Shown piece after piece: positions 5,856 to 59,162 of a stretch of 64,000 bases of DNA. Origin of the DNA: a candidate division WOR-3 bacterium (lineage in GTDB: Bacteria > Hydrothermota > Hydrothermia > JBDRYB01); contig JBDRYB010000003.1 in NCBI GenBank assembly GCA_039803205.1, positions 80,885 to 144,884 on the forward strand, written 5' to 3'. How positions within the stretch are numbered: the first letter of the stretch is position 1; each line of letters begins with the position of its first letter. A program made the translations under genes and the position numbers. The notes beneath the pieces are model-generated. The model worked only from the letters and a program-made list of their open reading frames with translations, was not told the DNA's origin and searched no databases.

Positions 5856-6074
5856 TCAATCGCCGCACTTCAATAATCCCAATAGCCACTCCAAAAGCCT
5901 GTCCGCTCCACGCTCAAGGTCCCTTATCTTTAAGGCTATTTCCGCTCGTTGTGCCATGAGCCTTGAATAGAGAGCGCCCGCGCGAGCATCGCCCTCAAGG
6001 GCCTGCTCCTCAATCCTCCCGAGGACAGCATCAATCCTACTCAGAGTATCCCTCAGAACCCCCACTGGGTCCAG
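5856..6074 (-). CDS. Small helical protein, candidate C-terminal part of a small terminase subunit
   Basis: Amphipathic helices around a GD turn (RIEEQALEGDARAGALYSRL). AAGGAG lies 5 nt before a CTG at 6074. Start uncertain; may be fused with the upstream ORF. Confidence 0.45.
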   Translation of the reverse strand: MDPVGVLRDTLSRIDAVLGRIEEQALEGDARAGALYSRLMAQRAEIALKIRDLERGADRLLEWLLGLLKCGD

Positions 6075-6262
6075 AGGTTCTCCTTCACGAATTCCTCTAG
6101 AGCTCGGCATTTCTCTTCGCCGAAGTGTCTCTTGGCCCAAGCCCAGCTCCGCCTCTCATAGACAATGGCCTCAGCCAGCTCGGTGAGATCCGGCCTCAGC
6201 GCTTCAAGCCTGTCCAGGAGAAGGTTTCCCTTTTCGGCGAGGATGAACCCTTCAGATAGCAT
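6053..6262 (-). CDS. Small HTH-like protein (sigma region 4-like, or TerS N-terminal domain)
   Basis: GGAGGA RBS and overlap with the upstream stop. Pattern LEALRPDLTELAEAIVYERRSWAWAKRHFG resembles an HTH. Confidence 0.5.
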   Translation of the reverse strand: MLSEGFILAEKGNLLLDRLEALRPDLTELAEAIVYERRSWAWAKRHFGEEKCRALEEFVKENLWTQWGF

Positions 6263-6599
6263 AGTCTTCCTCCAATTCGTCTAAGGACACGAAGATCATT
6301 CGCGTCGCCTTTTTCTTGAGCTTCCAAAGGTGCTTCTTCATCGCGGCAATGTAATATTGCCTGAATTCTCTGGCCTTGCCAGGGGCCCAAGACGACAAGA
6401 CCTTGAAGAGGAGGAGCCTGAGCTCCTGGGCCACATCCTCCTGTTCCGTGCCGTCCATGAAGTTAGCTGAGGCTCTCAGGATGTAGCGTTCCAGAAAGGA
6501 ATGCAGGCGGACAAAGGCTTCAGGGTCACCCATTTTGGCCTCTATGGCGGCTTTGTCTATTTCCTTGCCAGAGGGGTTCATGTTATTTAGTGAGCCCAT
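6252..6599 (-). CDS. Sigma70 region 2-only protein (phage-like sigma factor)
   Basis: AKMGDPEAFVRL, EQEDVAQELRLLL, W..GK..EFRQY, ending just after SLDE. GGAGG RBS. 115 aa. Confidence 0.7.
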   Translation of the reverse strand: MGSLNNMNPSGKEIDKAAIEAKMGDPEAFVRLHSFLERYILRASANFMDGTEQEDVAQELRLLLFKVLSSWAPGKAREFRQYYIAAMKKHLWKLKKKATRMIFVSLDELEEDYAI

Positions 6600-6675
6600 T
6601 TTTGTCCTCCGTCGTGAATAGTGTTGATTTGATCCGGGCTCAGCCCTTGCTTTATGCTTTTGAGGTTCACCATGA

Positions 6676-6715
6676 TCCGTTAAATATTATAACGGAAAAC
6701 CGTGATGAAGATCAA
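6676..6715 (-). promoter_or_regulatory. Sigma70 promoter for the sigma-like operon, overlapped by a palindromic operator
   Basis: Minus strand TTGATC (6710-6715)-18 nt-TATAAT (6686-6691). Perfect inverted repeat TCCGTTA-n7-TAACGGA at 6676-6696. Confidence 0.7.
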
Positions 6716-6728
6716 GTAGCTAACTAAT

Positions 6729-7364
6729 ATGCGTGATAAAGGGGAAACGATCGGCGCCCGTATAAAGAGGGCCAGGGAGCACCGGGGCATGTCTCAGCTC
6801 AGGCTTGCCAGACAAATAGGGGTGCCTTTCCAGCGCATCTCCGAGTGGGAGAGGGGCCTGGTTTCCCCATCCGCTCGTTACCTTAAGGCAATAGCTGATT
6901 CGCTTTCCGTTTCATTGGATTGGCTTCTTTCAGGGATGGGCCCGATGGAGAGGCCTGAAAGAAGCGATGCAATATTCCCTGTGCATCAGGTTCCTGTTTA
7001 CGGCACGGTCCCAGGGGGGCCTCCGTATGACCCAGGTGACCCCGGAGTCATGGAGGTAATAGGGGTTCCTGCGGAATACTCGGGAAGGGATGTTTTTGGC
7101 CTCGTTGTGAAGGGTGATTCCATGTCTCCAACCCTCGTGGATGGGGACAGGGTGCTGGTCGCGAGGGATATTAGGCCCAGAGATGGGCTTATCGTTGTGG
7201 TAAAAATGAACCAAGGCGAATATACCGTCAAGCGCATGAGGAGGCAAGGGGATCTCCTCATACTCATGCCTGATAATCCCAACTTTCAGCCCATTGTTCT
7301 TGCCCCTGATGATGAGGGAGAGATAGTTGGCGTCGTGGTTGAGGTGATAAGGAGGCTATTGTGA
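6729..7364 (+). CDS. CI/LexA-like repressor (XRE HTH plus S24 peptidase)
   Basis: HTH_3 motif GMSQLRLARQIGV...ISEWERG. S24 catalytic motifs GDSM (Ser) and TVKR (Lys). Confidence 0.9.
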   Translation: MRDKGETIGARIKRAREHRGMSQLRLARQIGVPFQRISEWERGLVSPSARYLKAIADSLSVSLDWLLSGMGPMERPERSDAIFPVHQVPVYGTVPGGPPYDPGDPGVMEVIGVPAEYSGRDVFGLVVKGDSMSPTLVDGDRVLVARDIRPRDGLIVVVKMNQGEYTVKRMRRQGDLLILMPDNPNFQPIVLAPDDEGEIVGVVVEVIRRLL

Positions 7365-8443
7365 TAAGGGCTGAGATGACAAGATGGCCAGAGGGAAGGA
7401 CTCCGGCCTTCCTCATGATTGACGATGTTGGCGATCTCGTTGTGGGGGATACTCAGGAAGGAGATTGGGGAGGCCTTGGAATAGGCCCAAACTCCACATG
7501 GGAGTTCTTCACGGAAACATACAGGCGTGCTGTCCCGAGGCTCAGGGCCGTGTTTTTTGTTTCTCCTGGCCAGTTCCTAAACGCGCGCCTCGTGCCGGGC
7601 ATCAAGATTCAGAGGCAAGGCAAGATTGTTGAATTGTTGGAGGTAATTGCCAGAGCACGTTGGGCCGAGATAGGTTTTCACGGTATGGATCACACTAGGC
7701 TGGATGGGAGGCCGGAATGCTCAGGGCTTGAAGACCCAAAAATGTGGCTCGCGAGGGGAAAGTCTGCCCTTGAGGAGCTGACTGGGGCCAAGGTTCTCGG
7801 TGGGAAGTGCCCTGGTTATGAGGGATACGAGCTCGTGGAGAAATACCTCACAGAAGCAGGGTTTCGGTGGTGGGCTGATGCCTGGACACCAGTAAGGGGA
7901 GGAAGGGGCTGTTTTCACGGGGGAAGAGGCGTTATCACGAACCAGAGGGGGGTGAGATTATTCCCAAGCAACATCGGCGCATACACGGGGCTTTATCGGA
8001 GGGGCCGCTCCGTTATTGAGAGGCTCTTCATGAAAAGGAGGATGGCCAGACTGTTCGCTAGGGCAAGGTTCCTCGTTGAAAAGGGGATTCCCGTTACCAT
8101 CCAAACGCACTACGCGGCGTTGCGCCCCGATGGGGCCAGGCAGGTCTACAACCTATACGATGACAGGCCCTTGCTCCTTCCTCTTCTTACGGGGCTTGAC
8201 GATCTGGTTTGGTGGGCTTTGCCAAGAGAGATATGCGATTACCTTGATACCGTTGAATCCATGAGCTTCCTCGTTGATGGCTTTAAGCTGATAATCAACT
8301 CTGAGCGGCCGCGCTGGGATGTCTCGTTTAGGATTCACCCTTGCCCCTCGTATCTCATGGCGCCTGAGGGCTACAGGGTCTATCCGAAAAAAGGGCTCTT
8401 CACCTTCCTCCCTAAGCCTGGGGCATACGAGGCGGTTTTCTAG
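7361..8443 (+). CDS. Polysaccharide deacetylase-like protein
   Basis: LMIDD and EIGFHGMDH (NodB-like) motifs. GTGA overlap with the repressor. Confidence 0.65.
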   Translation: MIRAEMTRWPEGRTPAFLMIDDVGDLVVGDTQEGDWGGLGIGPNSTWEFFTETYRRAVPRLRAVFFVSPGQFLNARLVPGIKIQRQGKIVELLEVIARARWAEIGFHGMDHTRLDGRPECSGLEDPKMWLARGKSALEELTGAKVLGGKCPGYEGYELVEKYLTEAGFRWWADAWTPVRGGRGCFHGGRGVITNQRGVRLFPSNIGAYTGLYRRGRSVIERLFMKRRMARLFARARFLVEKGIPVTIQTHYAALRPDGARQVYNLYDDRPLLLPLLTGLDDLVWWALPREICDYLDTVESMSFLVDGFKLIINSERPRWDVSFRIHPCPSYLMAPEGYRVYPKKGLFTFLPKPGAYEAVF

Positions 8444-9461
8444 CCCATGCCCCAACCATCCTCATCCTAAAGGTTGGCAAGGGAAGGGCCAGGGCCCTGT
8501 TCATAGTGTATCCCGTTGACCATATCCTCTTGTAATCCTCATCCCCTCGCATGAAGTTGAACTCCGCAAGTCCAGCATCAGCGCACCACCTGATTGCGTG
8601 CGCCAGATGGACCTTTCCGGGGGACAGCTCAAAGAGCCCGGGATCGTATGATGTGTTCCAATCCCAGAATATCCCGTCCCGAAGAAAACCGAGCCTGTAT
8701 GAGATCAGAGAGCTGTCCGCCCTCATGGTAAAGATGAGCAGTCTTCCTTTGGCCTGGCTCTCTCGTATCATCCTTAAGGTAAAATCAGCCCTCTTTCCGA
8801 TAAATGGGCTTCTCCTCTCCCTTCTCTTGGCGTTCAGGTTTACCATTTCCGATATAAGGGCCTCATCAGCCTCCTTAAGGACATCGTATCTTACCTCAAA
8901 ATTCTCCCTGAGCTTTCGCTCCTTCTTGTGGATGTCCCTCCTCGCGTTCCTCCCGGCACCGCGCCAGAGCGCTTCGTATCCAACCCTGAGATCGGCGAAA
9001 TAAACCCTAACCCAATCCTGGAGTTTAACCCCAAAGGCATCTGAGAGAGGCGACGCGAACGCGGAAGATCCCGGGAACTGCTCAAGCCTTATCTCGTCCA
9101 CTTTGGGAACCCCCTTAAGGGCCTCAGCGAAGGCGCGCGCGACATCCCCCGGTTTTACATCAGGGCAAGCCAAGATATCTGAGAAGTCCGTGGGCCCCTG
9201 GGAGAGGAATGTTAGGATGCGCTTTTTGATCAATCCTCGCAAGGCCAAAGAGGCCTCCCTCCTCTCAAAGAAACCGCAGGCTAGGATGTCATTCCCCTCC
9301 CTGAGAACTATAGCAAAAGGCCTTTGGGCCAGGGTTTCAAGCCAGGGTAGGAGCCACCAGGATTCCATCTGTATCCCACATGGGTGCGCCCGTGCCAAAC
9401 GCTCAGCCATCCGGATGAGCTCGGCTATTTCATCGGGATTCTCAACCCTCTCCTTCCTCAA
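8412..9461 (-). CDS. GNAT family acetyltransferase (CelD/BcsL-like)
   Basis: YDPGLFELSPGKV and FNFMRGDEDYKRIW motifs. Confidence 0.85.
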   Translation of the reverse strand: MRKERVENPDEIAELIRMAERLARAHPCGIQMESWWLLPWLETLAQRPFAIVLREGNDILACGFFERREASLALRGLIKKRILTFLSQGPTDFSDILACPDVKPGDVARAFAEALKGVPKVDEIRLEQFPGSSAFASPLSDAFGVKLQDWVRVYFADLRVGYEALWRGAGRNARRDIHKKERKLRENFEVRYDVLKEADEALISEMVNLNAKRRERRSPFIGKRADFTLRMIRESQAKGRLLIFTMRADSSLISYRLGFLRDGIFWDWNTSYDPGLFELSPGKVHLAHAIRWCADAGLAEFNFMRGDEDYKRIWSTGYTMNRALALPLPTFRMRMVGAWARKPPRMPQA

Positions 9462-11340
9462 GTTTCCTCCTCCATGTGAATGTGATGCCGAATATCTTTA
9501 TGCCCGCGACCCTGGCCACGGGCCTGAATCCAGCGTTTCTGAAGGCCTTCATTGATGCCTCATTGCCTTCAAGCACGATTGCCTCGGCAACCGTGAGTCC
9601 TGCTTTCCTTGCGTCCTGCCAGATCGTTTCCAGGACACCCGTGTATATGCCAAGGCCCCTGAACTCAGGGAGAGTCAAAGAATCAAATACATAAGCAACA
9701 CCAGGACTCGCTTTGTAGCCTGTTCTCGGTTCACGCTCGCCACCAGTGGCTACCCAGGTTATGTGTGCTGGTTCGCCATTCCAAAAGCCAACATAGCAGG
9801 CAACACCCCTATTGTGTCTCTCCTCGTAGACCCCTTCTCTGTCCTTTCTAAAGACTCGGATCAGCTCTGGATCCGAGACCTTCTCAACCACGAGCCCGCC
9901 TGGGATCAGGAACGCCTCGCCGCTGTTCAAAGACCTTCTGACCAGAAAACCTTTGGTTATTCCAAAGAGACTCTTCCTGTAAAGATAAACACCCACAGTA
10001 GAAAAACCAATAGCGAGAACCACCCTCCACCAGACCCTCTGAGACATCAGCGAGGCGGCCGCAATTATCCCTGCCCAAACGGCTATGGCAACCAGCTTCT
10101 TCCACTCGTATTTTACCGGGAATTTTCTCTGTGAGGCTACCAGAGTGAATACGGAAATGAAGAGAAACGATATGAGGGTTGCCCATGCCGCGCCCATCAT
10201 TCCGAAGAGGGGAATGAGAAGGAGGTTGAGAGCCATGTTGAGGAGGGCTCCGATGATGAAAGCGACCGATATGGGCCACGGTTTCTTTATTATGTGCAAT
10301 CCGGCGCCGGTTATCCAGCCCGAACCAAGGACGACATAGGATAATGCAACGAGGCCAACCACATCCAGAGCGCCCCAGTATTGCTTCGTGGCCATCGCCT
10401 TCAGTATGGCGGGCGCGAGGAGAAAAAGCCCAAGGGTGACCCACAGCCCGAAGAAGGAGTAAAGGGTTGCTATTCGGGATATTGAGCTCTTTGCCCTTTC
10501 GTGATCCCCCGCCTCCGCGTAAATTAGGGGTGGCCAAGCGAGCCTGAAAGGCTTCACGAGGCCTATTTCCGAAAGCTGGCCTATTCTGTATCCGACCGAG
10601 TAAAGACCGACCTGCGTCATATCAGAGAGCGCCTGAAGGAAATACCTGTCAGACATGTTAAGAACCCAGGCCGCTAGGTTTCCGGGTTCAAGCGCTATCC
10701 CGAACTTGGTTATCTCTTTTAGCTTTCTCCAGGAGAAAGAGGGCTTTCTGTTCCAAAGGCCAACTGGGGCCAAGAGGGCGAGTATGGCGATGTTGGAGAT
10801 TATTCCTGCCTCAAGTATTCCCGCGACCCCCCTGAGGAAACCAACCACAAAGAGAATGTTCAGGCCCAGCCTGAGCGCAAAACCCCCGAGGTTCGCGATC
10901 GTGTAGAGCAGGGGCCTTTCCTGTGCCCTCATGAGGTTCTGAAGCACTACAACCCAGGAGCCCGTCGCGAAGCCGAGCGCTGTTAGGCTAACAAGGTAAG
11001 GGCCGCCGGAAACAGGGGCCAAAAAGCGCGAAAGGGGTCCCGCGAGGGCCATCATGAGGGTCGCGCCCGAGGAGCTCAGGACAACGACGGCACCAAGAGA
11101 GGAGTATATGACCTCGTTTCTCTCCCTTTCCTCAGGGTAAAACCTGAGCATTCCGGAGGGTATGCCGAGGCAGAAGGCTATGGTAAGAAGGCCTGATGTG
11201 ACCGATAGAACCGATAGGACGCCGTAATCAGCAGGGGTAAGGAACCTGGTATATACGGGCAGAAGCACAAAACCAACCAGAGGCGAGAGCAGTGTGCCCA
11301 GGCCGTATATGAGGGTATCCACGAGGAGGCGTCGGATCAC
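9442..11340 (-). CDS. Wzx-like polysaccharide flippase fused to a C-terminal GNAT domain
   Basis: LLPVYTRFLTPADYG, SDRYFL, VGLYSVG and LIPLFGMMGAAWAT motifs. C-terminal TLPEFRGLGIY...NEASMKAFRNAGF. Confidence 0.85.
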   Translation of the reverse strand: MIRRLLVDTLIYGLGTLLSPLVGFVLLPVYTRFLTPADYGVLSVLSVTSGLLTIAFCLGIPSGMLRFYPEERERNEVIYSSLGAVVVLSSSGATLMMALAGPLSRFLAPVSGGPYLVSLTALGFATGSWVVVLQNLMRAQERPLLYTIANLGGFALRLGLNILFVVGFLRGVAGILEAGIISNIAILALLAPVGLWNRKPSFSWRKLKEITKFGIALEPGNLAAWVLNMSDRYFLQALSDMTQVGLYSVGYRIGQLSEIGLVKPFRLAWPPLIYAEAGDHERAKSSISRIATLYSFFGLWVTLGLFLLAPAILKAMATKQYWGALDVVGLVALSYVVLGSGWITGAGLHIIKKPWPISVAFIIGALLNMALNLLLIPLFGMMGAAWATLISFLFISVFTLVASQRKFPVKYEWKKLVAIAVWAGIIAAASLMSQRVWWRVVLAIGFSTVGVYLYRKSLFGITKGFLVRRSLNSGEAFLIPGGLVVEKVSDPELIRVFRKDREGVYEERHNRGVACYVGFWNGEPAHITWVATGGEREPRTGYKASPGVAYVFDSLTLPEFRGLGIYTGVLETIWQDARKAGLTVAEAIVLEGNEASMKAFRNAGFRPVARVAGIKIFGITFTWRRKLEEGEG

Positions 11341-11446
11341 TTAGTTTTATAATTTTAACACGAGACTTCGACCGAAAGCATTCATGTTGCGGGGAACTGC
11401 TCAAACTGAATTATAATTTAAAGCCTGGTTCTAAGGGAGCAAAACC

Positions 11447-12571
11447 ATGAGAAGGTTATTTGTGCTGTTCTTGTTCTTCTCAGCCTGCGCCCCTAGGCAA
11501 GCCGGAAGGGAATCGGGTTCTGGCCCCCTGAGCGTCATGCCGGAGGATGTCCTCCTTCCCAATCCGGACAGCGTCCTCCGTGAGGCTCAGGACGCCTATA
11601 ACCGAAAGGACTACCCGAGAGCGGCCTCAGCCTATCTTGACTATGTTAGCCGCAACAATCAGAACGCTATTGCCCTGTATAATCTCGCGTGCTGTTTCGG
11701 GCTTATGGGGGATTCCATCAGGGCATCCGCCTTTCTAAGAGCCGCTTGGGACGCTGGATACAGGGACACCCTGCACATTCTGAGAGATCTGGATTTTGAA
11801 CCGGTCAGGGGATCGCTGGCTTTCAAGAGCACGATGGATGGGATCATGGCCGAGGCCACCAGGGGAACCGAGGGGAAAAACAAGGTCTACCTCTCCGTTG
11901 GAACCCTGCTCCCCTGCTATGTTGTGGTGCCGGAGGATTACGATGCGCAGGAGCGCTACCCCTTGGTTATTGGCCTCCACGGCTACGGGTCGGACCCAAA
12001 GCAGTTCTCAGACCTGTTCCGGAGACCATACAAAACGGACACAACGAAAAAGTCAATGAAGATCAGCTTCATCTACGCGGTCCCATGCGCGCCCTATCCG
12101 GTGAGCCTTGGCGGGAAGCCCGGCTATTCCTGGACCCCTCCGGAGGGCGAAATAGGCAAAAGGGCTATATGGATGGACGCGGACTACATAACCTCCTTGC
12201 CTCGTGAGCTCCTCAAGTCCTACAACATTGATACCACCCGGGTCTATCTCCTTGGTTTCTCCCAGGGAGCGAGCATGGCATACACAATAGGGCTCAACAA
12301 CTACAAGCGCTTTAAGGGGATAATCGCGTTCGCGGGATGGTTTGATACCACAATGGTGTCCCTTGAGTCCATAAGAAAGGCAAAGGCAGAGGGCATGAAG
12401 GTATTCATAGCCCACGGGAAATACGACCAATCGGTGCCGGTGACCGCGAGCATGGGGGCATACAAGTTTCTGAAGGAGATCTATCTTGATGTCTGGATAT
12501 CGCAGTTTGAGGGCGGGCACGAGGTTCCGATGGAGACCCTTGAGTTCGCCATAAAGTGGATGGGGTTATGA
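11447..12571 (+). CDS. Lipoprotein with TPR region and alpha/beta-hydrolase (phospholipase/carboxylesterase) domain
   Basis: Lipobox FSAC, TPR-like YNLACC, and hydrolase motifs LHGYG, GFSQG, HGKYD and GGH. Confidence 0.85.
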   Translation: MRRLFVLFLFFSACAPRQAGRESGSGPLSVMPEDVLLPNPDSVLREAQDAYNRKDYPRAASAYLDYVSRNNQNAIALYNLACCFGLMGDSIRASAFLRAAWDAGYRDTLHILRDLDFEPVRGSLAFKSTMDGIMAEATRGTEGKNKVYLSVGTLLPCYVVVPEDYDAQERYPLVIGLHGYGSDPKQFSDLFRRPYKTDTTKKSMKISFIYAVPCAPYPVSLGGKPGYSWTPPEGEIGKRAIWMDADYITSLPRELLKSYNIDTTRVYLLGFSQGASMAYTIGLNNYKRFKGIIAFAGWFDTTMVSLESIRKAKAEGMKVFIAHGKYDQSVPVTASMGAYKFLKEIYLDVWISQFEGGHEVPMETLEFAIKWMGL

Positions 12572-12979
12572 GAGATGTTCTTGCTCACCCCTGCCAGATG
12601 CCCCCTTCATTCCCTCAAAAGCCATTACGAGGAGCCCAGCGCCCCTCATCACATCCGAAGCCGACATCCGTGCGAGCTTCTCCCGGAGCCTCTCAATCCT
12701 CCTCCTTGCCCTCCGGTAATCCGAGCACCTTTTATCCGTTGAGACATCAAGGATGGCCAGGATGTGGACGAGTCGCTCAACCGATGGCTCATCCTCCATA
12801 AGGGGAGCGAATGCCTCCTCAACCGAGCCAAATACCGCCTGTAGCCAGATTAGGGTGAGGGCGGTTGCTGGGCGAACCCTTGCGGGGCCAACCCGACCGA
12901 GCTCGCCCCTGAGAAAACCCAGGGCCAGGGCCTTCCCCCTTTCTGCCTGAACCTTTGCCTTCTTTATCAGCTCTTTCAT
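12566..12979 (-). CDS. Hypothetical protein, last gene of the head-tail operon (tail assembly chaperone position)
   Basis: ATGA overlap with the tail tube gene. Helical. Function inferred from position only. Confidence 0.5.
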   Translation of the reverse strand: MKELIKKAKVQAERGKALALGFLRGELGRVGPARVRPATALTLIWLQAVFGSVEEAFAPLMEDEPSVERLVHILAILDVSTDKRCSDYRRARRRIERLREKLARMSASDVMRGAGLLVMAFEGMKGASGRGEQEHLS

Positions 12980-13683
12980 TCTGAGACTATCCTCTCGCGT
13001 GTTATGAACCCATCCTCGTCAGAGAGAAGGATAAAACTGAGCTTCATTAGGGTTTCCCTCCCTGAGAGGAATTCCTCTGACCAAGAGGAGAGGACAGCCC
13101 TCCTCGCCTCTATTACCCTGAATGCCTGGCCCTCGGAAGACGAACGCCCCAAGGCAGGGAAAACGAGGATGAGGGCAAAATCTCTGCAAAGATAATAACG
13201 ATCCTCATCCTCCCCGTATGCGTATGAAACCAAAACCTCCTGTCCGGCGTCCTCCTCCGCAAAATAAAGAGCCCTCTCACCGGGGTCATATGAAAAGAAA
13301 CCAGCCGAAGGGCGTTCTGCCATATCAAAAACATCCCCTGAGGGAGTCTCCACGATCAGGCTCTCCGGAGCCGGCTCATCCGGAAGCCTCAGCTTGAAAG
13401 GGGACTCATCGGGAACCGTGAGCCTCAGGTCCCTCTTGAATGCCCTGGCCCCTCCGGCTCCGGTGATCGGGTTTGGGTCAAAGATCACCCTAGCAACGCA
13501 CGAGACGGTTCCGCTACCAGGGCCAGGCACAGCCGCGACGGGGAACTCATCCCTTTCGGAGTAAATGGGCCTCATAGAGTAATCAAGAAGGATGCTGACC
13601 TCCTCTAGATCAGCTATCTTCAGAGCTTGTCTCCCGCGGAGAAGGAGTTCCCCAACGCCTCCACTGTAATACCTTCTCTTCAC
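12976..13683 (-). CDS. Phage tail tube-like protein
   Basis: GVGEL...LEEVSI...IY...FPVA N-terminal pattern, inserted P.AG.FS...F..EDAGQEVLVSY.Y domain, C-terminal L.F...DEDG. Follows the neck genes. Confidence 0.65.
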   Translation of the reverse strand: MKRRYYSGGVGELLLRGRQALKIADLEEVSILLDYSMRPIYSERDEFPVAAVPGPGSGTVSCVARVIFDPNPITGAGGARAFKRDLRLTVPDESPFKLRLPDEPAPESLIVETPSGDVFDMAERPSAGFFSYDPGERALYFAEEDAGQEVLVSYAYGEDEDRYYLCRDFALILVFPALGRSSSEGQAFRVIEARRAVLSSWSEEFLSGRETLMKLSFILLSDEDGFITRERIVSE

Positions 13684-13692
13684 GATACCCCC

Positions 13693-14037
13693 TTAGAAAA
13701 AGCACCTCGCTGTGAGCCTCACCACAGCCCTTTCTCCCTCCCCCAAGGAAGTAGCGGAACACTCCGATAGCCGCATCCCTAGCCCAGCTGAGAGCGCCTG
13801 TCTTGCGTTCTCTGCAACGGCCATTGCATCAGAAAGGCAGGAATCTACAGCGATCAGCTCAAACCTGAGGAGGCCGTGCTCGTGGTCCGCTGAGCAAAGG
13901 AAGACCCTCTCCCACCTGGCCGTGTAATAGAGGCCTGGTTCTCTCGGCTCGCTCATGCTGGAATCCAGCGGTATTGCGGGACACCCTTGATTCTCAAGGA
14001 TCTCAAGCACCTCTTGGATGTAGTCAACCAGCCTCAC
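13693..14037 (-). CDS. Putative tail terminator/completion protein
   Basis: 114 aa, located between the head-closure and tail tube genes. Alpha/beta pattern ..AVAENARQAL. Confidence 0.5.
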   Translation of the reverse strand: MRLVDYIQEVLEILENQGCPAIPLDSSMSEPREPGLYYTARWERVFLCSADHEHGLLRFELIAVDSCLSDAMAVAENARQALSAGLGMRLSECSATSLGEGERAVVRLTARCFF

Positions 14038-14369
14038 CTTATCTCAAACCTCCCATTGTATTCCTCAAGCAGAAGCTCCCAGTGATCCGTCCCGAATCCG
14101 GAAAACCGCCTCACCTCTTTTACCGCAAAAGCCCTCCCCGCGCGTTCAACCCAGCGTGGTTCCTCGCTTAGGGGAGGGGTGATAGCGATGGCGCGCTCTC
14201 TCGTTTCACGGCCGTAGGGGTCATCCTCTGCCCTAAAGGAGGCCCTTCCCCAACCGCATTGAACCCTGTTCCCTCTCGTGAAGATAGCGAGTTCAGAGCC
14301 GAGGGCATCCCTTTCGCCTACTAGATGAAGGATGTAAATGCTGTCCCTCATGAGAAATCCAAAGGCCAT
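14034..14369 (-). CDS. Putative head-closure (stopper, SPP1 gp16-like) protein
   Basis: GGAGG RBS and TGATG coupling. Patterns RDALG and GRAFAVKEV...HWELLLEE. Gene order. Confidence 0.55.
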   Translation of the reverse strand: MAFGFLMRDSIYILHLVGERDALGSELAIFTRGNRVQCGWGRASFRAEDDPYGRETRERAIAITPPLSEEPRWVERAGRAFAVKEVRRFSGFGTDHWELLLEEYNGRFEIR

Positions 14370-14890
14370 CAGAGAAACCTCCTCCTGTGCGCGTATCTTA
14401 TGAGGACCCACCGGACATCATCCGAGAGAAGAGGGTTTTCCCGGAAATCTATGCCAGTCTCTCCGGATCTGAATCCGGAGATGTCCGGCCTCGGCCCCGC
14501 TAGGATCCTCGCGGCAACTCGGGCCACTGTTCTGGCAACATCATCCGGGACAGGATCCTTCGGATCGTTGTAGTAATACACCACATCAACAGGCCTTCCG
14601 GTCTCAACCCTCATCTCGCCTATGCGTTGATTGAGCCACTCCCAGGCAACATCATTGCCCTTGTCATCCTTGACCGAGACTACGCTGTGAACAGGCCAGT
14701 GGCTGAGAAGCACCCAGAACCTGATGGGATTGTGCCTCTCGGAAGCCGGTTCAGCCCTGAAATGCCTGCCCGTGAAGGCATCAATGATGTCGGAGGCCTG
14801 GCATATAGCGAGGCTTATCTCCTCATCGGTCCTATCCTGCTCCCCCAAGAGTCCCAACTCGGCCCTCACATCGCTTATTTCGCAATACAT
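14369..14890 (-). CDS. Head-tail connector (HK97 gp6/SPP1 gp15-like)
   Basis: MYCEISDVRAELG, ASDIIDAFTGRHF, VPDDV and L.RY motifs. Directly follows the capsid gene. Confidence 0.75.
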   Translation of the reverse strand: MYCEISDVRAELGLLGEQDRTDEEISLAICQASDIIDAFTGRHFRAEPASERHNPIRFWVLLSHWPVHSVVSVKDDKGNDVAWEWLNQRIGEMRVETGRPVDVVYYYNDPKDPVPDDVARTVARVAARILAGPRPDISGFRSGETGIDFRENPLLSDDVRWVLIRYAHRRRFL

Positions 14891-14906
14891 GGCTTTTTCC
14901 CTTTAA

Positions 14907-14930
14907 TTAAAAGGGGCCTTTCGGCCCCTC
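14907..14930 (-). terminator. Intrinsic terminator directly after the major capsid gene
   Basis: Minus strand GAGGGGCC-GAAA-GGCCCCTT followed by TTAATT. Confidence 0.75.
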
Positions 14931-14933
14931 ATC

Positions 14934-15947
14934 TCACTGGCCAAGGTTCTCTGCCTTGACAAAGGGGGTTATCCCTCCATCCGTGTCCCAGGCCAGCTTG
15001 CCATCTATCCGCTCCGTTATCGTTATCAGAACCTCATCCTTGAGAGCGAGGTCCTCGTCCTCCGTTATGACCCTGAGCTCAAGCCCGTTCCGTTCAAAGA
15101 TGTGGTAGAACCTCATGTCTCCGAGATATATGTCCCCATCGGCAAGGACAGAAGCCTCGTGAACAGGCCTCCCGTATACCGTCCAAGAGAAGGCTCCGGA
15201 TAGGCTAGGAACGAGAAGGGGCCTTCCTGTTGTATCCTCAAGGCCGAGAAGGAGCGCCTTCGTCGCGCTGTTCGCATACCAGGCCGCGCTCTCGCGAAAC
15301 TCAGGGGGCAGTTTCACATACATCTCGTTCAGGACATCTAGGATGTCTTTGCCGGTCGCGTCTATGACCCAAGAGGCTGGTATTGCCCCGTCTATGCCAG
15401 AGGGTTTGCCTGTTCCATCACCGAGCCAAAACGCGCTTTCCTCGGTGTATCTTATAGCCCTTCCGAGGGAATCCGCTATCTCAGCCCCAATATCAACTGA
15501 GCTGTCCTCAAGCGCCTCTACGGTCACCTTGGTGTAGGCCTTGAGCTTGTTCAGGTTCCAAGCCAGGTATCCAAAGGCTGGCTCTGATTCGGCCGGGGGT
15601 TCCGTGTCCTCCGAAACCCAGTATGCGGTGAGGGAAGGCCTGGCAACCGGAACCCTCCCCGTGGACTCAGCGACCCTATGGAGGGTTGCTCCGGGCCGGA
15701 CAGATGCCCCTAGTTCCGCGGCCTTTATGACCTCATTTGAGATACCGGTCGGGAGAAAGGGTGTCTCTCCCGAAGTTAGGGTCTTCAGCTTGGCGGAATC
15801 CCTGAAAGCCATTGCCCTTACTATATCAGCCAGACGCGTGTGAGGGTTCTCAGGCTCAGGGCTGTATGCCTTCCTTAGCCTTTCATCCATGGCTTCCCTT
15901 ACAGCCTTTCTCAGGAGCTCAGTGAGCTCCCCCTTTGTCATCTCCAT
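14934..15947 (-). CDS. HK97-family major capsid protein
   Basis: AYWVSE, KLKAYTKVTVEALEDS, AFWLGDGTGKPSGI, LEDTTGRPL, GRPV, GDMRFY and ERIDG motifs. AAGGAGG RBS. Confidence 0.93.
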   Translation of the reverse strand: MEMTKGELTELLRKAVREAMDERLRKAYSPEPENPHTRLADIVRAMAFRDSAKLKTLTSGETPFLPTGISNEVIKAAELGASVRPGATLHRVAESTGRVPVARPSLTAYWVSEDTEPPAESEPAFGYLAWNLNKLKAYTKVTVEALEDSSVDIGAEIADSLGRAIRYTEESAFWLGDGTGKPSGIDGAIPASWVIDATGKDILDVLNEMYVKLPPEFRESAAWYANSATKALLLGLEDTTGRPLLVPSLSGAFSWTVYGRPVHEASVLADGDIYLGDMRFYHIFERNGLELRVITEDEDLALKDEVLITITERIDGKLAWDTDGGITPFVKAENLGQ

Positions 15948-15949
15948 TT

Positions 15950-16468: not shown

Positions 16469-16568
16469 TTTTCCTCCACTCAGAGGGAATAGTGCGAATG
16501 ACACGGATGATTCTCCCTAGAAAAATGGTCGCGTGGAATTCTTTATGCTATGCTCGCTGAATGTGCGG

Positions 16569-17300: not shown

Positions 17301-17301
17301 C

Positions 17302-17775: not shown

Positions 17776-17859
17776 GGTTCCATATTTTACTTCATTCCCT
17801 CGTATCCAAACAATCCCTTGCTCCTCGTTGCGCCAGGACATTAACATTTCCTCCTGGAT

Positions 17860-19050: not shown

Positions 19051-19095
19051 TCTCCTTCCTGGAGGAAAATACGAATTGAGGAGAACTGAGGCCCT

Positions 19096-20115: not shown

Positions 20116-20176
20116 TGGAAGATTATAATGGGAAGGTGTAGCCTTGCGCTTGTTACTAGCTCGGTGGAGACGAGGT

Positions 20177-45998: not shown

Positions 45999-48388
<2,390 letters not shown>

Positions 48389-48438
48389 GCTTATAAACCA
48401 TAAGCCGCTTGTTGATTATTGGAGGCTCTATCCTGGGC

Positions 48439-49695: not shown

Positions 49696-49699
49696 TTCA

Positions 49700-53542: not shown

Positions 53543-53545
53543 GTA

Positions 53546-54640: not shown

Positions 54641-55970
54641 GACTGCCTCCTTTTGCTGGTTTCAAATAGACTATGAATTCAGTTCCCTTGCCTGGCTCTG
54701 ATTGGACCTCAACCATGCCGCCGTTCTCCTTGACAAGCTGATAGACAACGAAAAGCCCCAGGCCCGTCCCCCCTTCCTTGGTGGTATAAAACGGATAAAA
54801 GACCTTCTGCTGAGCCTCGGGCGGAATCCCTGGGCCCGTGTCCCTAACCTTGAGGAAGATGTAAGGTTTCCCCAGATCGGGGTTGACGATGGTGCTCTCT
54901 CCGCCCTCAATCTCTATGAGCCCGCCCCCTCGTTCCATGGCCTCTATGGAGTTGAGTATCAGGTTCATCAAGACCTGCTGCATCTGAGCGGGGTCAGCCA
55001 TGACCGAGATAGATGGGTTAACTGAGACGGTTATTCTTATGCTTGAACGCTCAGCTCGTTCCCGGAGAACACCCACTACCTCATTTACAGCCGAGAGCAG
55101 GCTAAATGGTATTGGGTGAGGTGGCCTGGGCTTGGCATAAGCAAGGAGCTTCTTTATCATCCCGTCAATTTTGTCTATCTGCTTCATTATCCTTGCCGCG
55201 TATTCACGCTTTTCTGGTTCTAGCTCCCTGTAAAGGGCCTGCGCCATGACCCTTACGCCCGCAAGGGGATTCTTGACCTCGTGCGCTATGGAAGCGGCTA
55301 TTATGCCGAGGGAGGAGAGCCTGTCCACCATCGTCATCATCTGATGCATCTTCTTTATATCAGTAATGTCCTTGAAGAGCACGGTCCATCCAACCATGCC
55401 AGGTTCATGCTTGAAGGGTTTGGCAGACATGGTGTAAAACCTGTCTTCTATCCGCACCTCTTCCTCGCTTGGAGATGACCTCCTTGCGGCTTCAAGGAGC
55501 TTTGGGATTACGGAAAGGTGTGCCTGGGCATATTTGTTAGCGTAGAGGACGCGCCCACGCCTATCCAGGAGCACAACCCCAGTATCAAGCCCCTCAAGGA
55601 TCTCCTCCGCGAGGTATGATTTGTGCCTTGGGATGAGGCTCGCCCTGAACCCCCTGCCGTATCCGGGCAATTCAACGGGTATAACCCTTAGGTGGCCGCC
55701 TATGACCACGCCCTCCTTTGTGAGCAGGGGAACCTTTACCGAGAGGATTCCCCCTGCCCTGAAAGCGGCCTCAAGCGCGGAGGATATTGCTTGCCGGTTC
55801 TGCTCTGGGAACAGATTGAGGAAGCTCTTTCCTTTGAGTTCAGCAGCTTCCCAGCCACACACATCTGCTATTTTCTTGTTCACGAATAGAACGGTAAAAT
55901 CAGGCCCTATCTCAAAAAGGGCCTCTGATGTTATGTCCAAAAGATCAACCAGCTCCTCCTTCACGCTCAA
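54627..55970 (-). CDS. Cytoplasmic PAS-domain histidine kinase
   Basis: AHEVKNPL, NLILNS, DTGPGI, PFYTTK and GTGLGL motifs. Two PAS-like domains. Confidence 0.93.
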   Translation of the reverse strand: MSVKEELVDLLDITSEALFEIGPDFTVLFVNKKIADVCGWEAAELKGKSFLNLFPEQNRQAISSALEAAFRAGGILSVKVPLLTKEGVVIGGHLRVIPVELPGYGRGFRASLIPRHKSYLAEEILEGLDTGVVLLDRRGRVLYANKYAQAHLSVIPKLLEAARRSSPSEEEVRIEDRFYTMSAKPFKHEPGMVGWTVLFKDITDIKKMHQMMTMVDRLSSLGIIAASIAHEVKNPLAGVRVMAQALYRELEPEKREYAARIMKQIDKIDGMIKKLLAYAKPRPPHPIPFSLLSAVNEVVGVLRERAERSSIRITVSVNPSISVMADPAQMQQVLMNLILNSIEAMERGGGLIEIEGGESTIVNPDLGKPYIFLKVRDTGPGIPPEAQQKVFYPFYTTKEGGTGLGLFVVYQLVKENGGMVEVQSEPGKGTEFIVYLKPAKGGSHGRA

Positions 55971-56566
55971 CTCTGTTTCACCCCCGATTTCTTTATTATG
56001 TCCTTGAGGACATCCTTGGTTATGAGGTCAAGGGTCTGGAACACCCCTATCCCGTTTATTGCCACTGATTCAACATGCGGCGCGTTCCACTTGTTCAGCT
56101 TCGCCTCAAGCTCGGTTACGGGTAGGGCGTCAGATGCATCGCGCTTGTTATACTGCATAACCAAGGGGAGACTCTCAATTGGATTGCCGTAGTCCCTGAG
56201 GGTTTGGACCATCTCAACGAGTATCTGCAGGTTTGATTCCATTCTGCTCGCCGATGAATCAGCGACATATACTATGCCGTCAGCTCCCTTTAGGACCAGG
56301 CGCCTGGATGCCTTGTAGAAGAACTGGCCTGGGACAGTGTAAAGGTGAAAACGGACCCTGAAGCCTCCGGGCAAGTTTATCTCAACGGGAAGGAAGTCAA
56401 AGAAAAGGGTTCGTTCGCCCTTTGTGTCAACAGAGACCAGCTCGCCCCTGTGGTTTGGATTTAATTTATCAAAGATATACTTGAGATTGGTGGTTTTACC
56501 GGATAGCGCTGGGCCGTAATAGACTATCTTGCAGTTTATTTCCTTCTTTAGGCTATCTATCAGCAT
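55967..56566 (-). CDS. mglA: MglA-family small GTPase
   Basis: KIVYYGPALSGKTTN, ERTLFFDF, YTVPGQ and NKRD motifs. Confidence 0.95.
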   Translation of the reverse strand: MLIDSLKKEINCKIVYYGPALSGKTTNLKYIFDKLNPNHRGELVSVDTKGERTLFFDFLPVEINLPGGFRVRFHLYTVPGQFFYKASRRLVLKGADGIVYVADSSASRMESNLQILVEMVQTLRDYGNPIESLPLVMQYNKRDASDALPVTELEAKLNKWNAPHVESVAINGIGVFQTLDLITKDVLKDIIKKSGVKQS

Positions 56567-56570
56567 CGCA

Positions 56571-57029
56571 CTATTTCTCGGTTCCTTCCTCTCCTATAAG
56601 GTCAGTGAAGGAGAAGCCCTCAAGGAGCGATAGATCCGTGCCAAAAATCTCCGAGACATCAACCTGGGTGGAAATGACCTTGGAGATCTCAGTCGCGGCC
56701 TTCCTGACCTCAACCAGAATGAGACCAAGGGGGGCTTCTGACATCACCGAGACGGCAAGAACTCCCTCCTGACCAGCGCCGGATATGACAACCATCTTGT
56801 CCTCGCCCTTGATGTAGATCTCTTTGAGGGTTCCTCCCTTTATCTCCTCCAAGACATTCTCGCCAAGGCCGAGCAAGGCAGCCGCCATAGCGCCGAAGGA
56901 TTCCTCGTTCGTGCCCTCCTCAAGGGAGGAAGCCAGGGATATTCCTTCAACATTTATGACGGCCGCGGCCTTGATGTGTGGGGTTTTCCTTATGAGGTTT
57001 CTGAGGATGGTTTCTATTTGCGATTCCAT
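56571..57029 (-). CDS. MglB-like roadblock/LC7 protein
   Basis: EGISLAS, AMAAALLGLG, EIYIKGE and LGL motifs. Adjacent to mglA. Confidence 0.88.
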   Translation of the reverse strand: MESQIETILRNLIRKTPHIKAAAVINVEGISLASSLEEGTNEESFGAMAAALLGLGENVLEEIKGGTLKEIYIKGEDKMVVISGAGQEGVLAVSVMSEAPLGLILVEVRKAATEISKVISTQVDVSEIFGTDLSLLEGFSFTDLIGEEGTEK

Positions 57030-57060
57030 ACTACTCCTCCATTTCTTCGCTCACCCTTAA

Positions 57061-57089
57061 ATAATAAGGGAAAAAGCTCGGCCGGTCAA
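57061..57089 (-). promoter_or_regulatory. Sigma70-type promoter of the mglB operon
   Basis: Minus strand TTGACC-17 nt-TATTAT upstream of a GGAGGA RBS. Confidence 0.65.
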
Positions 57090-57151
57090 GTCCATCGCCC
57101 GGAAATTATAAACCGCGCGCGGGCGCGAGCTCCACCTCGCGCGTTCAGCAC

Positions 57152-57181
57152 TTGCAATTCACGAATGAAGCGGGTTATAAT
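57152..57181 (+). promoter_or_regulatory. Sigma70-type promoter
   Basis: TTGCAA-18 nt-TATAAT upstream of an AGGAG RBS. Confidence 0.65.
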
Positions 57182-57202
57182 CTTAATCCGTAGGAGACAG
57201 TC

Positions 57203-57850
57203 ATGAAGAAGTATCTCTTTATAGCAGGGATAATGGCCACGATGGCCGGCTGTATAGGGGGCCTGGGCCGTGGTTGCGGAGCTTGCGTTCAGAGGCAGAT
57301 AGAAAAGCAGACCGGAGTCAACCTCGGCACGGGAATGACCCAGGAGGAAATGGAGAATTACAGGCTCACGGACGCGGATGTTGAGAAATACATAAAGGAC
57401 TTCCCTCGCCTGGCAAGGGAGTTTGAGGAGCTGAGCGAGACAGTGGAGAGGACGCCCACAAAACCCCTCAAGGGTTTTACGGCCCTGGCTGGCTCAGAGA
57501 AGATGCTCGCTGAGCTCAGGGCCATGGGTTGGAACCCTCCAGAGAAATTCTTCGCGGTTCACTACGCTGTAATGACTGGAATAGCCTATAACGCATTGAA
57601 GGCAGGGATGGAGGAGGTGCCCGGAGATTTGGGCGAATACAAGCGCCAGATGGAGGAAATGCTCAACAACCCGAATATCCCGCCTGAGCAAAAGCGGCAG
57701 ATAAGGGAGAGCTTGAGGGAAATGGAGCAAGCCCATAAGCGGATGGAGGAGCAGATGAGGGAGCTGGAGAGGGGGGAGATAAAACACAACGCGAGGGTTG
57801 TTGAGAGGCACATGGACGAGCTCCAGAAGATGTTCGACAGCATAGACTAG
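57203..57850 (+). CDS. Hypothetical coiled-coil lipoprotein
   Basis: Lipobox MAGC and Glu/Met-rich helices. Confidence 0.7.
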   Translation: MKKYLFIAGIMATMAGCIGGLGRGCGACVQRQIEKQTGVNLGTGMTQEEMENYRLTDADVEKYIKDFPRLAREFEELSETVERTPTKPLKGFTALAGSEKMLAELRAMGWNPPEKFFAVHYAVMTGIAYNALKAGMEEVPGDLGEYKRQMEEMLNNPNIPPEQKRQIRESLREMEQAHKRMEEQMRELERGEIKHNARVVERHMDELQKMFDSID

Positions 57851-57872
57851 GCGTTCCGGCACTATTTGCTTT

Positions 57873-59162
57873 GTGCCATATGTCCCAAAAGGGCTCCTTG
57901 AGAAGGTAAAACTAGCAGTATTAAGGCTAAGGGCGGATCCGGTCTTCTTCGCGGAGAGCGTCTCCGGGTTTAGGTTCAACCAGTCCCAGAGAAGGGTGTT
58001 CCTTCTTTCAGGAAGGGTGAGGGTTAGGCTCGCCGGGAGGCGATTTGGAAAGACCCTCCTCTCAGCGCTTGATCTCCTTCACTATGCCATAACCCGTCCT
58101 GGCAGTAAGTCCCTGATCGTAGGTCCATCCCTGGATCAGGCGAGGATATACTTTGATTATTTCAGGGATTGGACAGCCTCCTGTCCTCTCTTGGAGTATC
58201 TGATTTTGGAGGATAAGCATTCGCCCTTCCACGAGATAAGCCTCAGGAACGGATCCGTGATAACATCCAGGTCAACATCCAGAGGTGGAAGGTTCATAAG
58301 GGGGCGCGGATATGACAGGATAACGGTTACAGAGGCTGGTTTTGTCCCTGACGAGGTCTATTACGCGGCTCTGAGGCCAGCCCTACTCCAGAACCCGAGG
58401 GCCAAACTGGATTTTGAGGGAACCCCTTGGTCAAAGACATCCTTTCTATACGAGCTTTTCACGAAGGGGCTCGCTGACGGGGAGTATTACTCTGCCATAA
58501 GGGCTACCAGCTACGAAGCCCCCCACATATCCAAGGATGAGCTGGAAAGGATAAAGGCCGAGGTGCCAGAATACTACTTCTCATGTGAGTTTCTCGCTGA
58601 GTTCCCTGAGGATGACGAGGCAGTATTTCCTCAGGCCATCGTCCTCAGAGCGGTTCAGGACTACCTCCCGGCCGCCAGGCCATTCCCAGGCCACATCTAC
58701 AGCATGGGGGTTGACCTGGCGAAGCTCCACGACTACACGGTCATAATAATCCTAGATGTCTCCGAGAAACCTTGGAGGATAACCGAGTTCCACAGGTTCA
58801 GGGGAAGGGCATACGCGGAGGCATCTGAGCTAATAAACGCGCTCAGGGCCAGATACAGGGCCAGGGTGGTGATTGATGCGACTGGAGTGGGGGAAGCGGT
58901 TGCCGAAAGGGTTCCTGGCTCATACCGGGTCGTGATAACCGCGCAGAGGAGAGAGGAGATGATCGCGCGATTGAGGCTCGCTCTTGAGACCGGTTCCCTG
59001 ATCCTTCCGGGATCAAACATGATCTTGCTTGAGGAGCTTAAGCATTTCAGAGAAAAGGGCCAGAGAGGATTCCACGACGATTGCGTTTTTGCCCTCGCGC
59101 TCGCTGTGTGGGGAGCGGGGAAAGGGACCGGATGGGCAAGCTGGCGGACCGGGAACATTTGA
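57873..59162 (+). CDS. Phage terminase large subunit
   Basis: Walker A GRRFGKT, Walker B region RG.GYDRITVTEA, GTP coupling motif, nuclease motifs GVDLAK.HDYT, IDATGVG and HDD.V.ALALA. Confidence 0.92.
   Translation: MPYVPKGLLEKVKLAVLRLRADPVFFAESVSGFRFNQSQRRVFLLSGRVRVRLAGRRFGKTLLSALDLLHYAITRPGSKSLIVGPSLDQARIYFDYFRDWTASCPLLEYLILEDKHSPFHEISLRNGSVITSRSTSRGGRFIRGRGYDRITVTEAGFVPDEVYYAALRPALLQNPRAKLDFEGTPWSKTSFLYELFTKGLADGEYYSAIRATSYEAPHISKDELERIKAEVPEYYFSCEFLAEFPEDDEAVFPQAIVLRAVQDYLPAARPFPGHIYSMGVDLAKLHDYTVIIILDVSEKPWRITEFHRFRGRAYAEASELINALRARYRARVVIDATGVGEAVAERVPGSYRVVITAQRREEMIARLRLALETGSLILPGSNMILLEELKHFREKGQRGFHDDCVFALALAVWGAGKGTGWASWRTGNI

Follow-up and report, generated by a model that had tools for sequence, protein, structure and literature searches.

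To our knowledge, gene transfer agents (GTAs) have been recognized in few lineages, and how they are regulated is understood for Alphaproteobacteria only. Of the other systems compared below, PBSX forms a single contiguous cluster, has a contractile tail, and uses the Xre/Xpf logic of a repressor and a sigma-like activator, and the satellites called capsid-forming phage-inducible chromosomal islands (cf-PICIs) encode their own large terminase (TerL), portal, protease, HK97 capsid, and head-tail connectors. The late promoters of phage T4 consist of a single 8-bp -10 element. According to the cited passages, RcGTA has 24 genes at five loci, 17 of them in one head-tail cluster (PMC5721377); its activator GafA, encoded by two separate genes in Hyphomicrobiales, possesses DNA-binding regions resembling those of sigma factors (PMC9638019); CcGTA is controlled by GafY/GafZ (PMC11150451); and residues 44-123 of T4 gp55 model on sigma-70 domain 2, with gp33 as a sigma-4 mimic and the pair constituting "a split sigma" (PMC2988020). 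Here, we analyze a window of 64,000 nucleotides (nt) from a candidate division WOR-3 bacterium (contig JBDRYB010000003.1, positions 80,885 to 144,884) in which genes of phage type for a regulatory switch, a head-tail operon, and a solo TerL lie among host genes.

On the balance of the sequence evidence, we consider it probable that these genes, together with further loci of the same genome, form a domesticated, chromosomally fixed siphovirus-type gene set for a tailed DNA-packaging particle, arranged in at least six units that would be switched on together and resembling either a GTA or PBSX. The window is C3:80885-144884 of the source genome (G000), a metagenome-assembled genome (MAG) of hot-spring origin (2.32 Mb, 50 contigs, 96% complete) whose genus holds three species, the other two being represented by its congeners G001 and G002. 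Coordinates are those of the window unless they carry the prefix of a G000 contig (C) or of a retrieved locus (L). A full-text literature search for "gene transfer agent" with "WOR-3" returned no paper, and wider searches gave nothing on the lineage, supplements not being covered.

Scattered units and their common promoter element

An earlier note on this DNA had described three separate islands of phage genes between host genes, namely, a repressor/sigma-like/TerS-like switch (5856-7364), a protease-capsid-neck-tail tube operon (12566-16468), and a lone TerL (57873-59162), and had read them as a domesticated, GTA-like particle system. Matches to Pfam and PHROG families confirmed the three islands. 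The operon holds as described, its end at 16468 being the true protease start as refined from a conserved motif and the Shine-Dalgarno sequence, and TerL was corroborated by both Terminase_6N and Terminase_6C. Two of the three parts of the switch stand, i.e., the repressor, by its HTH_3 and S24 domains, and the sigma-like protein, by a subthreshold Sigma70_r2 match and its predicted fold. The label of a small terminase (TerS), in contrast, was dropped for 5856-6140, which has just a subthreshold DUF5681 match (E of 0.02-0.12) and is really two open reading frames (ORFs) of 69 and 84 amino acids (aa). The scatter proved even wider than proposed, with at least six units, but islands 1 and 2 are not independent of each other: the repressor, the head operon, and the polysaccharide genes between them form a block that is collinear in G002, L018, and L022. 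A search of the rest of the genome for an orphan portal recovered one as a lone gene.

The capsid, protease, adaptor, tube, TerL, and portal genes are interspersed with housekeeping genes of the cell's own chromosome. A single contig of 145 kb (C3) carries four of the six loci, with Mfd, TrmFO-type GIDA, aldolase, and chorismate synthase among the genes separating them, and the system as a whole spans more than 140 kb plus other contigs. Along the window the G+C level is flat. The ORFs of the three islands are uninterrupted, as the earlier note had stated, and all 20 genes of the system are intact in G000, each as a single copy except the holin-like gene. Their codon use is likewise host-like, as claimed (AGG, 58% versus 52% of Arg codons; ATA, 51% versus 54% of Ile codons), and their codon-usage distance falls inside the spread of random host gene sets. 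The absence of integrase and replication genes was borne out in the scanned stretches 4877-21439 and 55967-62665, and no such gene occurs among the scanned ORFs adjoining five of the six loci; at the C5 part of the sixth, the single upstream gene scanned encodes an aminotransferase. All seven integrase-family matches in G000 are away from the loci of the system, one of them being in the C11 element described below, the only int-rep element. The loci lack a replication or integration module and extend over more than 140 kb, so that the genome of the system cannot travel in its own particles, which leaves a GTA-like role in DNA transfer or a PBSX-like role as a killer particle.

What joins the units is a heptamer, CACTATT, first noticed in a comparison of upstream regions ahead of the sigma-like gene, the protease, TerL, and the portal, and common to all six transcription units. 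All 22 orthologous upstream regions examined have it unchanged (sigma-like gene, three; protease, seven; TerL, three; portal, three; 227-aa gene, three; 118-aa gene, three). Its position is equally constrained: in all three species it stands 6 nt before the GTG of TerL despite differing upstream genes, and elsewhere it precedes the Shine-Dalgarno sequence by 6-10 nt. No conserved -35 element was found upstream of it in the regions examined. In G000 the heptamer is rarer than expected, with 113 copies where 7-mers of equal composition have a median of 193.5, and no more than 11 copies fall within 60 nt of a crude same-strand gene start, 6 of which are those of the system. By our own arithmetic from these genome counts, the chance of finding it in a given 30-nt window is about 7e-4; therefore, its presence at six of six units cannot be due to chance. 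Searches guided by the element also gave two loci that homology searches had missed, the 118-aa gene and the tail-tip/lysis operon.

The proposed specificity factor for these promoters is the 115-aa sigma-like protein of island 1. Pfam Sigma70_r2 matches it below threshold in all three orthologues (E of 0.014, 0.0026, and 0.00077), and its AlphaFold (AF2) model (predicted local distance difference test, pLDDT, 77.7) matches nearly exclusively sigma region-2 structures. In Foldseek, 2o7g aligned with a template modeling (TM) score of 0.79 (root mean square deviation, 1.9 Å) and 4lup, sigma-E region 2 on -10 DNA, with 0.76; among the best 50 matches, 47 were sigma factors or RNA polymerase complexes holding one, with TM scores of 0.72-0.79 on structures comprising region 2 only. 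A Protein Data Bank (PDB) sequence search with its profile gave nothing significant. In seven other genomes of the phylum, the profile aligns with the region-2 portion of longer ORFs, whose 188-281 aa would suit whole sigma factors; the 115-aa protein, in contrast, stops after region 2 and lacks region 4. A promoter with a -10-type element only fits a factor having region 2 without region 4.

The sigma-like gene is itself preceded by CACTATT, 6 nt before the Shine-Dalgarno sequence, an arrangement kept in G002 and L022, and we propose that this is an autoregulated -10-type promoter. Farther upstream is a sigma-70-like promoter over which lies an inverted repeat (core CCGTTA..TAACGG) that three loci retain, its 9-nt arms being perfect in L022, and that is the predicted operator of the divergently encoded S24 repressor. 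This repressor is the sole S24 gene of G000 and is 77-79% identical across G001, G002, and L022, with ratios of nonsynonymous to synonymous substitution rates (dN/dS, by the Nei-Gojobori method) of 0.07-0.09. Of the 38 other genomes of the class, 21 have S24 proteins at 26-40% identity to it; it may therefore be the cell's own LexA equivalent, or else a CI belonging to the element.

Two small ORFs complete the regulatory operon. The first, of 69 aa, has a start that overlaps the stop of the sigma-like gene; a Pfam scan gave no match for it, and it may possibly be a cofactor of the sigma-like protein. It was also considered as a sigma region 4, which was ruled out by hhalign, where it had no region-4 similarity. 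For the second, a predicted coiled coil of 84 aa, a PDB sequence search with its profile returned nothing. On the other side of the switch, a 360-aa ORF with no family match (7361-8443) overlaps the repressor stop and is 66-69% conserved; it is followed by an acetyltransferase (Acetyltransf_6), a Polysacc_synt-GNAT fusion, and an esterase, these making up the conserved block between switch and head operon. Between the 360-aa ORF and the acetyltransferase gene, G002 has an insertion of about 1 kb with two genes of 197 and 126 aa (L009:2708-3743), which has CACTATT and a Shine-Dalgarno sequence ahead of it and is not in G000.

These elements can be combined into the following scheme. DNA damage or another signal would inactivate the S24 repressor sitting on the inverted repeat over the sigma-70-type promoter, whereupon the sigma-2-like protein would be made, its own CACTATT promoter reinforcing its expression. 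It might then guide RNA polymerase to the -10-only CACTATT promoters of the remaining units, thereby switching on TerL, the portal, the protease-capsid-neck-tube operon, the tape-measure-like 118-aa gene, and the operon for tail-tip, holin-like, and papain-like proteins. Particles would assemble, package DNA by the headful, and be released through lysis.

CACTATT also occurs beyond these units. In G000 it lies 17 nt before the start of the rep gene of an int-xis-rep element on contig C11, which has no structural genes in the 11 kb inspected and could, judging from its sequence, be a mobile element of small size that responds to the sigma-like factor of the system. Neither the element nor its rep gene was found in G001 or G002; because of this lack of conservation, the element was rejected as part of the system. 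Likewise, an ORF with an SPPY motif, which by our own reading is DNA methyltransferase-like, has CACTATT at its called start (C13:39271-40041) and is a possible further member of the regulon.

Head, packaging, and tail genes

The head operon (Table 1) runs from the protease through capsid, adaptor, and two proteins at neck positions to the tail tube and a helical protein at the position of a tail assembly chaperone, and there it stops, where a tape measure would be expected. The 137-, 125-, and 114-aa proteins gave no match in PHROG and Pfam scans at loose thresholds. The tube was recognized through its nearest Atlas clusters, which are viral (score of 0.97), align in structure with TM scores of 0.5-0.58, and are partly YomU_Tube (PF27173, on 25% and 11% of the members of the two best). 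Its profile found 10 matches in a HMMER scan of 1.84 billion representatives, and two of the six scanned belong to phrog_8234. In L040 (G144:C125:1-5505), a phage or prophage contig from another WOR-3 genome, a phrog_8234 protein sits between neck genes and a chaperone plus tape measure, the full order being a capsid-like protein (phrog_13692), adaptor, Neck1, phrog_8150, the phrog_8234 tube, a chaperone-like protein, and the tape measure. An AF2 model of the tube from a five-sequence alignment had a pLDDT of 44 and was set aside, no fold search being made from it.

TerL is 75% identical in G001 and G002 (dN/dS, 0.10-0.12), and the portal is 86-88% identical in both (dN/dS, 0.07-0.08). The flanks of the two genes differ in every one of the three genomes. 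In G000, the portal is flanked by a WD40/PD40 gene and a DUF5122 propeller gene, with Mfd next, and TerL is followed by an LTXXQ gene, the one neighbor that adjoins it in all three genomes while the other flank differs. In G001 (L013, G001:C233), the portal adjoins an NFACT gene and a 377-aa gene, both of which in G000 follow TerL-LTXXQ (59737-62665). The proximity of the portal to NFACT in one genome and of TerL-LTXXQ to NFACT in the other may be the trace of an earlier terminase-portal block. Immediately before the TerL region, a Ras/Arf-like small GTPase adjoins a Roadblock/LC7 protein as an MglA/MglB-type pair (55967-57029).

The tail-tip/lysis operon encodes, in order, proteins of 227 aa, 129 aa, 67 aa (holin/XhlA-like; phrog_689, 1e-4), 367 aa (Laminin_G_3/PKD at subthreshold scores), 1,054 aa, and 195 aa. 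The order is repeated in G001, and in G002 the locus ends after the 195-aa gene. This last protein belongs to the phage family phrog_1128 (3e-19) and, by our own reading of a His and FCSE residues together with that membership, is a candidate papain-like peptidase/endolysin. The 227-, 129-, and 1,054-aa proteins had no match in loose-threshold PHROG and Pfam scans, an Atlas search with the 227-aa protein was uninformative (score of 0.79), and PDB sequence searches with the 195- and 1,054-aa proteins were empty or nonsignificant. The 227-aa protein is 53-56% identical in both congeners, the G001 gene being matched in two pieces, and the 1,054-aa protein is 49-64% identical in both, its gene being split over contigs in each. 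On contig C23, a second holin/XhlA-like copy, 91% identical, follows two ORFs of 150 and 160 aa; either the gene is duplicated or two population variants converge on the tail-tip locus. The 118-aa protein, the other product of the motif-guided search, is 60-65% identical in both congeners.

Table 1. Coordinates of the candidate particle gene set, its promoter elements, and associated features
Feature	Coordinates	Strand	Basis and remarks
84-aa ORF, predicted coiled coil	5856..6110	-	last in regulatory operon; 80-87% in G002 and L022; dN/dS 0.08-0.17
69-aa ORF	6053..6262	-	start overlaps stop of sigma-like gene; kept in 3 loci at 70% identity; dN/dS 0.12-0.26
Sigma-factor region-2-only protein, 115 aa	6252..6599	-	Pfam Sigma70_r2 subthreshold; predicted structure
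CACTATT element of sigma-like gene	6617..6623	-	6 nt before Shine-Dalgarno; kept in G002, L022
Sigma-70-like promoter toward sigma-like gene	6667..6715	-	TTGATC-18-TATAAT; promoter scan, 10/12 matches; overlapped by inverted repeat
CI/LexA-type repressor	6729..7364	+	HTH_3 and Peptidase_S24 (Pfam 6e-16, 4e-21; phrog_4 3e-46); divergent from sigma-like operon
137-aa helical protein, tail-assembly-chaperone position	12566..12979	-	after tube as in L040; last operon gene; conserved 67-74%; dN/dS 0.17-0.27
Tail tube, 235 aa	12976..13683	-	Atlas clusters; position of homologue in phage contig L040
114-aa protein, neck/tail-completion position	13693..14037	-	gene order; conserved 63-73%; dN/dS about 0.1; no family match
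125-aa protein, head-closure position	14034..14411	-	gene order; conserved 62-68%; dN/dS 0.13-0.33; no family match
Head-tail adaptor (Ad1)	14369..14890	-	phrog_442 2e-12; phrog_2377 8e-11
HK97-type major capsid protein	14934..15947	-	PF05065 6e-45; phrog_10 1e-49; single copy
Prohead serine protease (S78), 172 aa	15950..16468	-	PF04586 2e-6; phrog_80 4e-25; ATG at 16468
CACTATT element of head operon	16488..16494	-	7/7 orthologous loci, including 63%-identity lineage L025
CACTATT element of TerL	57860..57866	+	exactly 6 nt before GTG start; leaderless-type layout
TerL, lone gene	57873..59162	+	Terminase_6N 3e-13; Terminase_6C 9e-13; phrog_2 7e-42
LTXXQ/Metal_resist (Spy/CpxP-like) gene	59227..59652	+	PF13801 3e-16; adjoins TerL in 3/3 genomes, other flank differs
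Lone portal	C3:40941-42041		PF04860 2e-61; 40 kb upstream of window
Tail-tip/lysis operon	C5:112382-113666, continuing C3:1-4953		located via CACTATT
118-aa gene	C4:3296-3652		glycine-rich hydrophobic center; weak tape-measure match, phrog_9696 E 0.005
int-xis-rep element	C11:48276-51138 (L043:4277-7139)		integrase; HTH_17 excisionase-like protein; RepO-like initiator (phrog_678 7e-13)

Conservation, selection, and rival explanations

In a phylum-wide set of 272 genomes, high-similarity members of the capsid and tube families are confined to this genus. An 82%-identical capsid cluster bears the source name Candidatus Hydrothermia, and relatives of other genes are labeled candidate division WOR-3. 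A capsid search of 40 relatives found one of the two congeners and none of the 38 others, the G001 contig ending inside the head operon; TerL, the portal, the tube, the 227-, 118-, and 1,054-aa proteins, and the sigma-like gene are present in both congeners. The head operon or its capsid gene is present in eight of nine metagenome loci, and in two of these the capsid reaches just 63-66% identity. For comparison, host proteins of the three species are about 65-95% identical. Outside the lineage, relatives are distant: capsids reach about 30% identity over about 55% of their length, a capsid profile matched one distant Chloroflexia locus in the genome-contig scan and two distant loci (28-30% identity) in the viral-contig scans, and viral-contig scans with two tube relatives gave nothing close. 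Against 50,697 phage records, TerL is closest to that of Meiothermus phage MMP17, at 33% identity, and the tube matches none of them.

The genes are under purifying constraint comparable to that of their hosts. Within the genus-level group, dN/dS of the system is 0.06-0.33, and that of host flanks is 0.05-0.29. The individual ranges are 0.07-0.22 for the capsid (0.07-0.12 in the close group at 79-81% identity), 0.09-0.30 for the protease, 0.14-0.24 for the tube, 0.12-0.27 for the adaptor (0.25-0.42 against the distant L025), and 0.07-0.28 for the new loci where dS is finite. The ratios are rough, because many dS values exceed 1; pairs with dS of 0.5-0.8 give the same picture. The earlier note had named several observations that would speak for or against a maintained system, and most of them turned out in its favor: the genes are present in the three species and eight metagenome loci, they are single copy apart from the holin-like gene, dN/dS (0.07-0.33 against 0.05-0.29 in host flanks) is not near 1, and the 50,697 phage records hold no close homologues of TerL or the tube. 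Of the orphan tape-measure and lysis genes that it had proposed to look for, a holin-like gene came to light, whereas the tape-measure family PF10145 gave no match and the weak 118-aa candidate stands in its place. The GTA-like or domesticated reading is thus supported as far as sequence can tell, from the genes of one genus.

Four other explanations have to be weighed against a domesticated DNA-packaging particle. In the first, the product is a PBSX-type killer particle, i.e., a phage-derived bacteriocin that kills competitors and packages DNA as a by-product. The layout of the switch, with a repressor and a sigma-like activator, and the holin/XhlA-like gene within the tail locus would suit such a particle, as would the fast evolution of the tail-tip proteins (dN of 0.35-0.5), which is as expected for receptor binding under conflict. 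However, the tube is of siphovirus type, and the nuclease/ATPase domains of TerL and the portal are among the best-conserved parts of the system (dN/dS, 0.07-0.12), which argues that DNA packaging itself is selected. We regard this explanation as unlikely.

The second holds that the genes are a chromosomal helper set whose particles mainly package and spread int-xis-rep elements such as that on C11. The CACTATT ahead of the rep gene of this element and the lack of structural genes around it are what such a client would look like, but this is one motif occurrence in one genome, and four other unrelated genes also have CACTATT near their start. Further, no pac/cos site or TerS link was identified, and the structural set is kept in genomes without the C11 element, so that we give a helper role somewhat less credence still.

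A third and quite improbable explanation is an old defective prophage whose pieces, scattered by a high rate of rearrangement, are functionless and heading for loss. The short synteny blocks among the three species (just two to six genes), the NFACT gene near the portal in G001 and near TerL in G000, which suggests a once contiguous terminase-portal block, the end of the head operon where the tape measure should come, and the restriction to one genus would all agree with this. Decay, however, would bring frameshifts, loss, and promoter drift, whereas all 20 genes are intact in G000, three species keep the genes intact, every gene has a dN/dS well under 1 in the informative pairs, and CACTATT is invariant with conserved spacing at all 22 sites; these observations disfavor it. 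Finally, that active temperate phages were misbinned or misassembled into the MAG, for which its 50 contigs and one assembly-fork junction might speak, is highly implausible, given that four of the six loci share one contig with housekeeping genes between them, that the host-flanked arrangement recurs in independent assemblies, and that composition and codon use are host-like.

Several points nevertheless weigh against the reading that we prefer, that of a domesticated, co-switched particle gene set. The particle system is known here from genes alone, and the source genome is a 50-contig MAG in which the junction of C5/C23 to C3 is an assembly fork: the end of C5, the start of C23 (C23:1-260), and the start of C3 (C3:1-127) have an identical 127 bp inside the holin/XhlA-like gene. 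Parts expected of such a particle are missing or tenuous. No TerS was identified in the system, no search having been aimed at TerS families; there is no tape measure of normal length, PF10145 being without a match in G000 and other tape-measure families not having been searched; the 118-aa candidate for this role rests on an E value of 0.005; the 195-aa protein read as an endolysin has no Pfam or PDB match, no search having been aimed at endolysin families; and the putative roles of the 227-, 129-, and 1,054-aa proteins are taken from position only. As for the switch, the Foldseek E values of the sigma-like model are all above 0.001 (best, 0.014), and the CACTATT promoter is not exclusive to the conserved set, because it also precedes the C11 rep gene. 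In addition, dS is near saturation in many pairs, and the occurrence of the system in one genus among 272 genomes of the phylum implies that, measured against the class, it is not ancient.

A bolder form of our reading, which we put forward as a tentative possibility, is that of an independently evolved WOR-3/Hydrothermia GTA, dismantled almost gene by gene, with TerL, portal, capsid operon, a mini tape measure, and the tail-tip/lysis operon all apart, and tied together only by a private region-2-only sigma factor and a -10-only CACTATT promoter under the single LexA-like repressor of the cell, with the C11 element as a parasite or client of the host's particle machine.

Relation to known systems

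If the GTA-like reading is correct, GTAs would extend to a further phylum, one of mostly uncultured bacteria that was sampled here from hot springs. Domestication would have reached an extreme end-point, with the genes for terminase, portal, and capsid themselves unlinked and their coexpression dependent on a single short promoter element and a minimal sigma factor, the latter being a natural sigma-2-only factor outside T4-type phages. It also suggests a rule for finding hidden members of such regulons elsewhere, namely, to search for the common promoter element instead of for gene clusters. Multilocus phage-derived particle systems as such are known, as in RcGTA; the WOR-3 system differs in the extreme dispersal of its head and packaging genes, in its regulator, and in its host lineage.

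With agents of the RcGTA type, the WOR-3 system shares siphovirus HK97-type genes (TerL, an HK97-family portal, S78 protease, HK97 capsid, adaptor, and tube) and, as far as the cited accounts go, residence in the host chromosome, vertical inheritance, and several loci switched on by a dedicated activator, a putative one in WOR-3. It differs in that the 17 head-tail genes of RcGTA are described as clustered, whereas the WOR-3 TerL, portal, capsid operon, and tail-tip genes all lie apart. The proposed regulator is also different, being a 115-aa sigma-2-only protein with an S24 repressor instead of the GafA/CtrA circuit, and the host is one genus of WOR-3, where the system is known from genes alone. 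The kinship of the two, compared at the family level, consists of just broad Pfam families in common.

PBSX of Bacillus is similar in placing a repressor and a sigma-like positive factor over late structural and lysis genes, in its XhlA/holin-like protein, and in its nonpropagating particles, but the WOR-3 system has six scattered units, a tube of siphovirus type, and a sigma-like protein without region 4. The cf-PICIs resemble it in having their own TerL, portal, protease, HK97 capsid, and connectors; they are, however, contiguous integrase-bearing islands without tail genes, whereas the WOR-3 genes are scattered, have no integrase at their loci, and include a tube and tail tip.

For the switch, the closest parallel is T4 late transcription. 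In the cited description, gp55 is a small sigma-family protein restricted to region 2, as is the 115-aa WOR-3 protein, the two being likened by architecture and not by sequence. The WOR-3 promoters, too, show only a -10-type element without a conserved -35. The differences are that neither a clamp nor a gp33 equivalent was identified, the 69-aa neighbor being a candidate for the latter, that the WOR-3 element is CACTATT, and that its factor is chromosomal and would preside over scattered units.

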